Shown: positions 9,458-63,890 of the stretch, piece by piece
Layout: each line of letters starts with the position of its first letter
How positions within the stretch are numbered: position 1 is the first letter of the stretch
Assembly: GCA_951406725.2 (NCBI GenBank)
Contig: OX597830.1
Span: 67,394,001-67,458,000, forward strand
Reading direction: 5' to 3'
Length of the DNA stretch: 64,000 nucleotides
Origin: Octopus vulgaris
Taxonomy: Eukaryota
The notes under the pieces: model-generated
What the model was told of the DNA's origin: nothing
Seen by the model: the letters and a program-made list of their open reading frames with translations, nothing else
The model's database searches: none
Translations under genes and position numbers: made by a program

Positions 9458-9635
9458 TTTGTTCGTGTGGATCACCAAACCCCTATGGAGATTATGATGT
9501 GTTTGATAAGATCTACATGGAATATTCGTTTACCAAGTTTGCTTATTTCTGTGATTGGGGGAAGAGAAGACATTCAGTTGAACCCACATGATGAAGCTGT
9601 TGGGCGTGGTTTATACAAAGCAGCAAGAACCATAG
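9458..9635 (+). CDS. TRPM: TRPM-like channel N-terminal MHR1/2 (SLOG) exon A, cassette 1
   Basis: Polypyrimidine tract and AG at 9456-57, GT at 9636. Reads FVRVDHQTPMEIMMCLIRSTWNIRLPSLLISVIGGREDIQLNPHDEAVGRGLYKAARTI, matching the TRPM motif YVRV...W...PxLLISVxGG...GLxKxAxT. Phase 0 to 1. Confidence 0.9.
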
Positions 9636-9706
9636 GTATAAAGTTTTATTTAATAATAATAATAATAATAATAATAATAATAATAATAATAATAATAATA
9701 ATAATA

Positions 9707-10690
9707 ATGTGCAGAATATGTGGGAAGAGAATGTGTCAAAGTGTGACTCACATTGTTAGTGCTTGTGAAAGTCTTGCACAGAAAGAGTACAAGCATAGAT
9801 ATGACAAAGTAGCCCATAGCCTCCACTGCTGGAGCACATGACCTAGTGGTTAGAACAGCGGACTTGCGGTCGAGGGATCGAAGGTTCGAATCTCAGACTG
9901 GGCGATGTGTGTGTTTATGAGCAAAACACCTAAGCTCCACGCGACTCCGGCAGAAGGTAATGACGAACCTCTGCTGACTCTTTCGCCACAACTTTCTCTC
10001 GCTCTTTCCTCCTGCATCTTGCAGCTCATCTGCGATGGACCGGCGTCCTGTCCAGGTGGGGAACCTATACAACAAGGAAACCGGGAAACCGGCCCTTATG
10101 AACCAGGCATGGCTCGAAAAAGGAACAAACAAAATAGCCTCCACTGGCTACTATGTCATAAGTAAGGATATGAGGCTACGGGTGCTTGGTGCCAACATAC
10201 ACCAGAAAAGGTAATGGACGATAAGGGGAACTCTGATTTGCAGACAGACAAGGTGTTACAGCACTGAAGGCCGGATATAGGAAGGACAAACAAGAGTGCT
10301 TAATAATCGACGTAGCAGTGCCAAGAGATCAACACATCATCATGAAAAAAAGAGAAAAAGTTGATAAATATGGAGACCTGAGAATTGATATCGCTAAGAT
10401 GTGGCAGCTATGAGAGTCAAACATAAAGGTTACTCCTGTTGTCAAAAAATATCTGAAAAAAATTTAAATACCCAACAATCTCAGTGTATTGCAAAAGTCG
10501 GCATTACTTGGAAATGGATGTATATTGCGTAAAGTACTGTCTGTCTGAGGTCCTTGTTGTGACTTGACAAACAGTGTCATTATTTTAATAGCCTACCAAT
10601 GTATACAGTGCGTTTCTCTGCTCTGAGAATCAGGAAGAAACTCGGCAAGAAATGGAAACAGAATTGAAAGAAGATGATAATAATAATAGC
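9707..10690 (+). mobile_element. R4/Dong-type LINE 3' fragment (CCHC knuckle plus restriction-like endonuclease) next to (TAA)n
   Basis: CRICGK..SVTHIVSACESLAQKEYKHRYDKVAHSLHW, RPDI...IIDVAVP...EKVDKY. Begins right after (AAT)n at 9651-9707 and ends in an AAT-rich tail. Confidence 0.85.
9829..10133 (+). mobile_element. tRNA-derived SINE nested in the R4-type LINE, with a 13-bp TSD
   Basis: A box tgacctagtggtta, B box ggttcgaatc, (AAAC) tail; TSD atagcctccactg at 9816-9828 and 10134-10146. Confidence 0.9.
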
Positions 10691-10963
10691 AATAATAAAA
10701 GTAATAACAATCCTTTCCACAGTAGGCACAAGGCCTGACATCTTGAGGGAAGGGACTAGCCTGTTACATCAAGCCCAGTGTTTCACTGGTATTTAATTAA
10801 TCCACCCCGAAACAATGAAAGGCAAAGTCGACCCCGGCAAAATTTGAAATCAGAACATAAATACGGACCAAATGCCGCTATGCAGTCAGCTCGATGTCTT
10901 AATAATAATAATAATAATAATAATAATAATAATAATAATAATAATAATAATAATAATAATAAT

Positions 10964-11320
10964 ACGTAGGAGGGTGGTGTCATCAAAACTGAAAAATCGT
11001 GTAACGAAAGAAAAATTTAAAGAAGAAATGAATAAGAAAAAGCATGGAATGAAAAACTGTACGGTCAGTTTCCAGAGATATGAACGCCAAGACAGATACA
11101 GAGGACCGGTGGCTGTGGATGAGGAGGATTGACCTGAAAATAGAGACAGAAGCACTCATGTTTGCAGCTCAAGAACATGCGTTAAGGACCAAGTATGTGA
11201 GAAGTGCAGAATAGACAGCACCATCGACAGTGAGAAACGTAGAATGTGTGGTGAGTGGGGTGAAACAGTATGGCACATCGTTAGCAAAAGCCCGAAATTG
11301 TCACAACACGAATACAAAAT
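10964..11320 (+). mobile_element. R4/Dong-type LINE fragment next to (TAA)n
   Basis: Follows (AAT)n at 10900-10963; contains LKIETEALMFAAQEHALRT and MCGEWGETVWHIVSKSPKLSQHEYK. Confidence 0.75.
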
Positions 11321-60934: not shown

Positions 60935-61333
60935 GCCCCATGTTAATAGGGTGCTAAGAGCACCATCCGAGTGTGATCATTGCCAGAGCGGCTAACTATC
61001 TTCCATGCTGGTGGCACGTAAAAGGCACCATTCGAGCGTGATCGTTACCAGCGTCGCCTTACTGGCACCTGTGCCAGTGGCATGTGTAAAAAGATTCGAG
61101 TGAGGTCATTGCCAGTACCGCCTGACTGGCCCCTGTGCCGGTGACACGTAAAAGCACCCACTACACTCTCGGAGTAGTTAGCGTTAGGAAGGGCATCAAG
61201 CTGTAGAAATTCTGCCAGATCAAGATTGGAGCCTGGCGCAACCATCTGGTTCACCAGACCTCACTCAAATCATCCAGCCCATGCTAGCATGGAAAGCGGA
61301 CGTTAAACGATGATGATGATGATGATGATGATG
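60935..61333 (+). mobile_element. RTE-tailed SINE-like element ending in (GAT)n
   Basis: 3' end gcatggaaagcggacgttaaacgatgatgat; absent from cassette 1. Confidence 0.75.
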
Positions 61334-61831
61334 AACAATTCTAAATTTATTACAATTAAGTCTCTCTATTGTTTGTAATATTTGGCAGATGGATTTAACA
61401 TCTACGTATACATATCTTGTATTAGTGAAAGAGTATTAGATTTGTATAGTAATGTTTTCTTATGAGATGGGTTAGTTGTTGATTATGAGACAAACTGAAT
61501 TAATTAACATGTGTGTCTTTCTAATATATATATATATATATATATATATATATATATATATATATAAATAGGTGAATGAATTATCCTATGTTTATCGTCA
61601 GCATGGAAAATTCGTTTAACCGAAACCTGGGTAGCATATGTCGAGAGTAAAGGAATTTTGTTAACATCTTCGTTCGACTCCATTCTTTCATTTATATATA
61701 TATATATATATGTATATATATATATATATATATATATATATATATATATATATATACACATATATATATATATATATATATATATATGTATATATATTAG
61801 AAAGACACACATGTTAATATATATATATGTA

Positions 61832-62445
61832 TCATCATCATCATCATCATCATCATCATTTAACGTCCGCTTTCCATGCTAGCATGGGTTGGACGGTTCA
61901 ACTGGTGTCTGGGGAGCCCGAAGGCTGCACCAGGCCAGTCAGATCTGGCAGTGTTTCTACAGCTGGATGCCCTTCCTAACGCCAACCACTCCGAGAGTGT
62001 AGTGGGTGATTTTATGTGCCACCGACACAGGTGCCAGACGAGGCTGGCGAACGGCCACGCTCGGATGGTGTTTTTATGTGCCACCGACACAGGTGCCAGA
62101 CAAGGCTGGCAGACGACCACGCTCGGATGGTGTTTTTTATGTGCCACCGACACAGGTGCCAGACGAGGCTGGCGAACGGCCACGCTCGGATGGTGTTTTT
62201 ATGTGCCACCGACACAGGTGCCAGACAAGGCTGGCAGACGACCACGCTCGGATGGTGTTTTTATGTGCCACCGACACAGGTGCCAGACGAGGCTGGCGAA
62301 CGGCCACGCTCGGATGGTGTTTTTATGTGCCACCGACACAGGTGCCAGACGAGGCTGGCGAACGGCCACGCTCGGATGGTGTTTTTATGTGCCACCGACA
62401 CAGGTGCCAGACAGGCTAGCAGACGACCGCGCTCGGATGGTGTTT
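61832..62445 (-). mobile_element. RTE-tailed SINE-like element containing a 62-bp minisatellite (about 7 units)
   Basis: (CAT)n plus tttaacgtccgctttccatgc tail; tandem unit ttttatgtgccaccgacacaggtgccagac[g/a]aggctggc...gctcggatggtgt at 62010-62443. Confidence 0.85.
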
Positions 62446-63780
62446 ATATATTTACACACACACACACACATATATATATATATATATATATATATATATA
62501 TATATATATATATATATATATATATATATATATATATATATATATATATATATAAAGGTGGATGGAACTTGAGGAGGAGGAAGACCTATAAATATGTGGG
62601 AAAAAGTATGTAAAATGACCTTCAGATTTTGAGTTTCACAGAGGATATGACAAAGAACTGGGATAATTGATCATTTGGGCTTCAGGAGATCTGTCTATCT
62701 ATGTAAAATCGATGTCCTAAAGGCATGTTGTTTATTTCTATACCCCTGCACACAATCCATGTCTCTGAATCTCTCCCCCAAAACATATCTTCCTATCCCT
62801 ATTTACTGCATTTTTCTCCCCTCCATCTCCTACTCACCTTTCATAAACTTACCTACCCACTCACCCTATCCAATCCTCTGTACCAATTCCTATATATACA
62901 CCTCCCTGTAATTTGATGGAATGCCCCAATACATCTTCTTCACCCTCTTCTCTCTCCCTCTGGTTCCACCTGGAGTAGCCATGTATCTCTTCTACTGCAA
63001 CATATCTGTTTCTATCCCCTTATTCATACTCTAACTTCTCATCAGCTGGCACAAAGTTACCTCCCTCACTACTACTCCCCCCACTCAGTTGCAGTTTCTT
63101 ATTTTGCAAGTTACTTGGTCACCTCTCTAGTGTTGGTGCCACATAAAAAGCACCCAGTAAACTCTGTAAAGTGGTTGGTGTTAAGAAGAACATCTGGCTG
63201 TAGAAACCATGCCAAAGCAAATGGTAGAGTCTGGTATGGTCTTCTGGCTTACCAGTTCTTCTCAAACCATCCAACCCGTACCACAATGGAAGAAGGACAT
63301 TAAATAATGTTGGTATAGATGACGACGACGATGATGATGATGATGATGATCATCATCATCATCATCTTCATCATCATGGTATTGATTTATGTTTTCTAAA
63401 ACCTGAACTTATACTAAACTTTATATTCTAGTCAAGTCATATTTTATACATTTTAGACCTAAATGAGGTTATACTTAATGTGAGATGTATTTTAGAATCA
63501 GTTATATTTTATTATTAAGATATAATTAAAAAGATATACATTTTACTTTAATCACTTATATATTTTTACCTCAATCAGGTATGTTTTGTACTTTAACCAG
63601 GTATGCATTACACCATGATCTGGTTATACCTTCTACTTTAACCAGGTATATTTAAAAATTTAATCATGTATATGTTTTATACACTAACTAGATATGTTTT
63701 ACCTTAATCAGGCATATTTCATAATTTAATTAGATATTTTTTTTTTCTTAATCAATTTATATTTTCTGCTGTAATTTTAG

Positions 63781-63890
63781 AGACAGAAGTCAAGATTCCA
63801 GCTGTTGCAGTAATGGTTGGAGGTGGACCTGGAACTCTGAAGTCAGTGTATGATTCAATATCACGCAACATCCCAGTTGTAATAGTAAAG
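63781..63890 (+). CDS. TRPM: TRPM-like exon D', cassette 2
   Basis: ttttag acceptor, AAG|GTCAGT donor. Reads (E)TEVKIPAVAVMVGGGPGTLKSVYDSISRNIPVVIVK, with the canonical GGPGT motif. Confidence 0.92.

Follow-up and report, generated by a model that had tools for sequence, protein, structure and literature searches.

Tandem SLOG modules in Octopus vulgaris and the probable front end of a five-module TRPM-beta channel

The window analysed here, 64,000 nucleotides of Octopus vulgaris DNA (assembly GCA_951406725.2, contig OX597830.1, positions 67,394,001 to 67,458,000 of the forward strand), holds two consecutive copies of the SLOG-type MHR1/2 module found at the N-terminus of TRPM channels. These modules 1 and 2 probably form the front end of a TRPM-beta channel of Octopus, some 2,700 residues long, in which four distal modules are followed by an acidic linker, a fifth module and the pore; the channel is predicted to be calcium-gated, with its modules serving as sensors or decoys. 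The parts of this protein are ordinary and their architecture is unusual, making it a new form of TRPM-beta channel.

The repeat unit consists of nine exons, O-P-A-B-C-D-E-F-G, with O and P as a lead-in, A to D as the SLOG core and E to G as a helical cap that runs into the start of MHR3. The window exons match LSDAT_euk (Pfam PF18139), and A to G of module 1 as well as A' to D' of module 2 all have AG/GT ends (primes denote module 2, numbers after the letter denote the module in general). By position in the window and expectation value (E) of the profile match, the exons are:

4154..4238, forward strand: module 1 exon P, a PTDAFG-type lead-in (database models, splice sites)
9458..9635, forward strand: module 1 exon A, SLOG core with glycine loop (LSDAT_euk E 6e-10, splice sites)
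15502..15664, forward strand: module 1 exon B, its 3' end one base short as assembled, giving a frameshift
19829..20003, forward strand: module 1 exon C, SLOG core (LSDAT_euk E 3e-14)
25471..25583, forward strand: module 1 exon D, end of the SLOG core (LSDAT profile matches, splice sites)
31867..31940, forward strand: module 1 exon E, helical cap (splice sites)
33214..33398, forward strand: module 1 exon F, helical cap (splice sites; F-G spliced in a contig of run X2)
36679..36773, forward strand: module 1 exon G, start of MHR3
41334..41365, forward strand: module 2 exon O, a 32-nt mini-exon that is a shortened module first exon and joins G to P' in frame (X2 contig coverage)
44246..44327, forward strand: module 2 exon P' (database models, splice sites)
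49739..49922, forward strand: module 2 exon A' (LSDAT_euk E 1.6e-8, splice sites)
51302..51441, forward strand: module 2 exon B' (splice sites)
57116..57272, forward strand: module 2 exon C', without the loop bearing the Y295 equivalent
63781..63890, forward strand: module 2 exon D', followed 3' of the window by E' to G', module 3 and the assembled part of module 4, until a gap in the assembly 107 kb farther on

Exon O of module 1 lies 889-929 bases 5' of the window. The first-pass annotation, made from the letters alone, had read 9458-36773 as MHR1/2 plus the start of MHR3 and 49739-63890 as a second SLOG cassette; splice ends and LSDAT_euk matches agree with both assignments, and for the second so does a collinear duplication. 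In a self-comparison of the window this duplication sets 290-25676 against 41576-63991, with intron blocks that are 69-81% identical, and it bears out the proposed homology between the intron before A and the one after the mini-exon at 41334. Modules 1 and 2 are 54% identical in protein, and the tandem SLOG cassettes are real. Two other statements of that annotation did not survive: it had found no PTDAFG-type exon before A or A', where P and P' are located, and it had considered a further unit 5' of the window, where an LSDAT search of 56.93-67.40 Mb was empty, the adjoining 30 kb included, and where module 1's own O is located. Its claim that no MHR4 or transmembrane (TM) exon lies between 36773 and 49739 was upheld by a profile built from what follows the modules in 11 of 13 cephalopod and mollusc TRPMs. 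This profile matched no MHR3/4-S1-S6 exon in the window (best E 0.27) or on to the next gap (best E 0.35); in a control stretch it recovered 11 exons, all with E<=1.3e-5.

Across the whole genome 106 LSDAT exon matches were found, 101 of them on C17. We mapped 301 exons (34,334 bases) over the window and a further 1.99 Mb, with two further boundaries unmapped, and a single exon order fits all of them: modules 1-4, ten linker mini-exons (L1-L10), module 5, MHR3/4, S1-S6 and tail. The ten mini-exons alternate in phase, remain in frame overall and encode an acidic linker of ~136 residues. From O1 to G5, 55 exons chain in phase into 1,962 residues, which together with 639 residues after G5 (taken from an O. 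sinensis model) and ~130 before O1 give the predicted length of ~2,700. The complete order of module 1/2, 3, 4, ten linker exons, module 5, MHR3/4 and S1-S6 is present in a gap-free paralogue at C17:79.62-79.25 Mb, and in another gap-free stretch (67.83-68.08 Mb) the order can be followed from module 1 as far as the beginning of module 5, after which a gap intervenes. Linker exons follow the end of module 4 in three of three cases and precede the start of module 5 in four of four. MHR3/4 (PF25508) occurs only after module 5, modules 1-4 carrying the first MHR3 exon alone, and a six-TM ion-transport domain with TRP helix is found in the gap-free paralogue and in orthologous models; the window's copy reaches a gap first. 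That copy continues through module 3 to D4 and breaks off at a 100-N gap 0.9 kb farther on, and its 33 assembled exons all have canonical splice sites and form an in-phase chain except for exon B. Among seven 5' halves, one reaches the pore, one the start of module 5, four stop at gaps no farther away than the next intron is usually long, and one continues beyond D4; five pore halves of the array type are assembled. Modules 1 and 2 are whole in three copies, including that of the window, and a C1-to-D2 deletion is fixed in four of seven; some O. vulgaris copies may be haplotypes. We infer that the window's own copy reaches a pore and that the full 55-exon path and the channel are expressed as one mRNA.

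Database models of three Octopus species join the cassettes. In O. bimaculoides RefSeq, modules 1-4 correspond to XP_052830016, a model with LSDAT_euk in four stretches (E 8e-232), and the consecutively numbered XP_052830018-21 are encoded on the same chromosome, three of their four isoforms starting at module-4 exons F and G and continuing through linker, module 5 and channel. The same split into adjacent halves recurs in O. sinensis RefSeq (XP_036366249 and 250-254). In a tree of 26 rows modules cluster by position and not by species (support 100), so the array is older than the species split. Repeated modules were found in eight of 251 relatives scanned: three are from Octopus, two are likely artefacts, one is an oyster model in which another gene start comes after the channel, and the last two are TRPMs of invertebrates with two modules; the likely artefacts, the sturgeon multi-repeat model P0161 and P0221, were set aside for their near-identical repeats. 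No credible four- or five-module array outside Octopus appeared among the matches listed (the best 120 of 1,008 matches of 810-2,580 residues and the best 150 of 2,310), and within these searches the initial suggestion of a lineage-specific family holds. The two-module channel models P0298 (XP_072049890.1) and P0163 come from other invertebrates, and such TRPMs suggest independent duplications of MHR1/2.

None of the runs listed as holding window stretches is recorded as RNA; run X2 is RNA by program guess only, a single run whose contigs are not assignable to a copy. In one X2 contig F is spliced to G; it shows 3 differences over 218 bases, and its remaining 44 bases equal O2 plus 12. X2 depth covers the O2 and P' bins. 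A 273-nt contig connects L8, L9, L10 and O5 across GT-AG introns and extends a further 61 bases upstream (L6 and L7 together have 60), hence linker exons are spliced into module 5 in this putative RNA run. A direct G-O2-P'-A' joint was not among the X2 joints listed, and the contigs from runs X1, X6 and X7 consisted for the most part of repeats or introns.

The copies of O. vulgaris differ at 485 of 5,759 non-synonymous, 88 of 1,588 synonymous and 728 of 17,883 intron-flank sites, a non-synonymous to synonymous ratio of 1.53 (Fisher p 1e-4) that stays at 1.52 (p 0.009) without codons shared with another module. The regions that show this amino-acid excess are module 4, with a ratio of 2.04, the helical caps, with 1.91, and MHR3/4 together with the tail, with 1.87, and non-synonymous change is two-fold above intron change. 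These are parsimony counts without a codon model, which replaced pairwise ratios of non-synonymous to synonymous divergence because pairs are not independent. Ten frameshifted exons, L3-L5 (mixed paralogy), exon K and one duplicated P4 were left out, as were intron flanks with <100 aligned columns or >35% variable columns.

Human TRPM2 contacts ADP-ribose in MHR1/2 through M215, Y295, R302 and R358, as given in the consulted parts of two sources (PMC6759353; 10.64898/2026.03.30.715250). Aligned to bat TRPM2 as reference (numbers shifted by one), the corresponding residues are A/F/R/P in module 1, A/deleted/R/R in module 2, V/S/K/K in module 3, A/L/R/G in module 4 and E/S/R/Q in module 5. The full set of four contacts is thus kept in no module, the alterations differ from module to module, and module 5 in the gating position is among the most altered. 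Both the O. sinensis model and the copy at 79 Mb retain by motif, as judged from sequence only, the five ligands of the S2-S3/TRP calcium site (E843, Q846, N869, D872 and E1073, according to excerpts of PMC6759353). Pfam gave no NUDT9-H match in models of the array gene, and the O. sinensis model stops ~130 residues after the TM domain. The pore filter has an alanine (P0012; C17:79271250-79271076) where single-module octopus paralogues have a glycine, a substitution that may alter selectivity. AlphaFold folds module 1 into alpha/beta plus helices with block values of the predicted local distance difference test (pLDDT) mostly at 60-90. In a two-module database model, module 1 is confident and the first half of module 2 is misfolded (mean pLDDT 57) because the alignment placed MHR3/4 under it, which makes AlphaFold uninformative on module packing.

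In the mechanism that we propose, a tetramer would carry 20 modules: module 5, coupled to MHR3/4, would take the canonical gating position, and the acidic linker would tether modules 1-4 on the outside as variant sensors or decoys. The protein would act as a calcium-gated cation channel whose diversified modules form a panel of intracellular sensors, and the ligands would be variant nucleotides or fast-changing proteins, not plain ADP-ribose. An intracellular sensory role is possible. Fast change of helical surfaces, flux in copy number and shuffling of modules are also features of immune receptor families, and it is this immune-receptor-like change, together with the SLOG-gated defence effector of Thoeris, that makes immune surveillance our tentative first choice by analogy. 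A bolder version of this idea, which we consider rather doubtful, would be an arms-race immune family, in which five SLOG modules per subunit (20 per channel) read nucleotide alarms or pathogen proteins, recombination and exon skipping reshuffle the number and order of modules, and some copies produce soluble four-module decoys that pair with the channel, in parallel to SLOG-gated bacterial defence effectors. In type I Thoeris, ThsA has a homologous nucleotide-binding SLOG fold that gates an effector (10.1101/2021.01.06.425286, consulted in part); however, ThsA is bacterial, with one SLOG fused to SIR2 and no channel. In Thoeris systems the SLOG domain activates its effector on binding a cADPR isomer produced by a TIR protein; a TIR partner gene was not seen in the octopus array, where no search aimed at it was made.

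Several observations weigh against a five-module channel encoded by the window's copy. No read or contig spans the whole gene, or the D4-E4 joint, for which no RNA search was made, and the X2 evidence comes from one run, RNA by guess, without assignment to a copy. The pore of the window's copy would have to lie beyond the gap 0.9 kb past D4, and the 5' half at 68.87 Mb crosses a transposon nest and extends 68 kb beyond D4 with no exon E4. Assembled 5' halves number seven, whereas module-4 ends and module-5 cores number three each and pore halves five. One-base indels affect 10 of 301 exons, of which one is exon B of the window and three belong to the gap-free copy; the events number 11 (nine losses and two gains), 6 of the 11 clearly in homopolymer runs, and most may be consensus errors. 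The nearest module-4-end piece (C17:67.70-67.80 Mb) lacks L1 and the donor of L2 and can end in a stop. The position of R358 is also non-arginine in the TRPM2 of amphioxus and Aplysia, so that its loss in the modules says little. Lastly, there is no significant excess of amino-acid change in the SLOG cores by themselves (1.17, p 0.4-0.5), in the TM exons (0.99) or in the linker (1.34, p 1).

The 67.70-67.80 Mb piece bears on the idea that the window's copy or an isoform of it is a soluble, poreless four-module protein, ending in a derived linker or by read-through into the D intron and acting as ligand buffer, decoy or partner of channel copies. Its E4, F4 and G4 have ~64% protein identity to another copy with introns at 97%, L1 is lost, G4 is one base short (which restores phase) and L2 has no donor; it could continue the window's copy or another 5' half. 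Read from G4 into L2 it encounters a stop after 17 residues, as a soluble product would require, but a skip to L4 keeps it in frame towards module 5, and the piece is not assignable to the window's copy. Further arguments for a soluble form are the surplus of 5' over 3' halves, a stop 3-7 codons into the intron after every D exon (24 of 24) and the TM-less four-module proteins in RefSeq of two species. The latter, however, end by reading through a donor and have next to them a second model whose start lies in the middle of module 4: four of four TM-less RefSeq models end this way, with tails as the O. vulgaris introns predict, as do two of six TM-less O. vulgaris models. We consider this explanation unlikely for the window's gene. 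The first-pass annotation had left two options, a multi-SLOG TRPM or a cluster of separate soluble proteins; the former is supported by one reading frame, joined models and a linker to the channel in the gap-free paralogue, and the latter was not borne out. A soluble four-module product is possible for one copy and is not the rule.

Alternative splicing offers another way to depart from a fixed five-module channel. Joins between introns of the same letter (e.g. C1 to D5) would generate channels with one to five modules or swapped sensor cores, and all same-letter introns do have a common phase. In O. sinensis, isoforms X1-X4 go from C1 to D5 where X5 of the same gene follows B5-C5-D5, and another model goes from A3 to B4 (these junctions occur among models P0012-P0015, P0008 and P0004), which could reflect either alternative splicing or deleted paralogues. 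Yet such junctions also arise by genomic deletion, as with the C1-to-D2 deletion fixed in four of seven O. vulgaris copies, so that paralogues or mis-mapped reads may lie behind the models. The RNA contigs examined, which were placed away from C-to-D joins, contained no skipping junction. A splicing menu seems improbable to us.

Less probable still is that the window's copy is a recently dead duplicate in an array decaying under relaxed selection. The in-frame form of exon B (164 bases) is present in five of six other module-1 copies, and that of the window's copy is one base shorter, so that the assembled O1-D4 chain meets a stop at residue 196; most assembled copies have at least one one-base indel, and the X2 contigs are not assignable to this copy. 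An in-frame cryptic donor 11 bases upstream in exon B is used by a database model. On the other side, 32 of the 33 assembled exons of the window's copy are intact with canonical splice sites, and not a single nonsense change occurs in 291 in-frame exons, compared to ~31 expected if neutral. Moreover, the two-fold elevation of non-synonymous over intron change argues against decay, the array is kept in O. bimaculoides, and the extra base that the assembly has in L8 is missing from the X2 contig. That the tandem itself is an assembly artefact deserves almost no credence: eight scaffold gaps and flipped contigs occur in the region and some copies are maybe uncollapsed haplotypes, but modules 1 and 2 differ too much for this (54% protein, 69-81% intron identity), the window contains no N and the same order recurs in two other species. 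Doubt is confined to copy number and to two places, 44.50 and 68.60 Mb, where a module seems to be joined to TM exons, and the tandem as an artefact is refuted.

The array gene, read as a five-module channel, has both close relatives and clear differences from them. TRPM-beta and TRPM2-like channels (Nematostella TRPM2 6co7, human TRPM2; PF18139, PF25508, Ion_trans PF00520) have the same MHR1/2 plus MHR3 start as each module (phmmer E 9e-58 to 6co7) and have MHR3/4, S1-S6 and the calcium ligands in common with the array gene. In contrast to their single module, the array gene has four to five, an acidic linker of ~136 residues, no NUDT9-H, eroded contacts and 5-7 fast-diverging copies. The single-module Octopus TRPM-beta paralogues (C17:42.9-44.3 Mb) are 46-62% identical to it, form sister groups in the tree and likewise lack NUDT9-H; they have one module and are 85-95% identical between O. 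bimaculoides and O. vulgaris/sinensis, whereas the array gene reaches 74-76%. Two-module TRPM models (XP_072049890.1 and a Sanderia jellyfish model) place two SLOG modules before one channel, but they are known as predicted models and are ~33% identical to the Octopus protein, hence likely independent.

Multi-SLOG octopus TRPMs were not described in the literature that we searched (open sources, some in part; subscription papers lay outside its scope), and the array goes unmentioned in the consulted parts of 10.1101/2021.11.14.466824, 10.64898/2026.06.15.732245 and 10.1101/2024.05.23.594666. The parts of PMC13143021 at hand state that all TRPMs have a melastatin region, single per chain where the array gene has four or five, and its Table S1 lists XP_052830018, the 3' half, as TRPM-beta; PMC13402157, in the sections seen, reports one beta-TRPM per octopus species and does not mention SLOG or a tandem. 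The record can be corrected here, given that databases split the gene in two, the 2026 TRPM phylogeny took the 3' half only and the 2026 cephalopod TRP survey counted one beta-TRPM per species. If true, a five-module channel that is kept across Octopus, amplified and changing faster in protein than in introns would represent a novel means of widening or tuning the ligand gating of TRP channels, and one pore could read several intracellular signals. The isolated human MHR1/2 domain binds ligand (10.64898/2026.03.30.715250, consulted in part), and the modules make five natural variants of the ADP-ribose pocket available.

Further observations concern the copies and their surroundings. The linker at C17:79.41-79.37 Mb and in three other copies has mini-exons of 28-76 bases whose number varies between copies, and the odd-numbered ones resemble the module O exon in flanking DNA. 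Exon P4 is tandemly duplicated in one copy (C17:69025773 and 69031501), and a 10-kb inverted repeat (98% identical) follows a gap at C17:69.12-69.15 Mb, with flanks that resemble those of linker or N-terminal mini-exons. The direct joins of module 3 to TM exons at 44.50 and 68.60 Mb sit on 100-N gaps and were rejected as scaffold joins. The contig past the gap was likewise rejected as a flipped continuation of the window's gene: its beginning lies within the linker, and it overlaps with the following contig at an identity of 95-98%, which makes the two different copies or haplotypes.

Mobile elements are located in the introns of the window, among them one between G and the start of the duplicated intron that the first-pass annotation had called a Penelope element:

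38700..40430, forward strand: intronic high-copy retroelement with broken frames, Penelope-like by motif

The high-copy retroelement at about 38700-40430 was confirmed, and Pfam named no family for any of its five frames; we take it to be Penelope-like from its reverse transcriptase (RT) and GIY-YIG motifs. The D-E intron contains a long LINE-type retroelement (26900-31460, minus strand) with an RT fragment nested at 28138-29250 (plus strand). The window also contains other RT fragments (34595-35047, 48076-48654) and the remnant of a DDE transposase (14359-14616). A 62-base tandem repeat with 7.2 copies and 93% matches occupies 62005-62449 within a SINE-like element.

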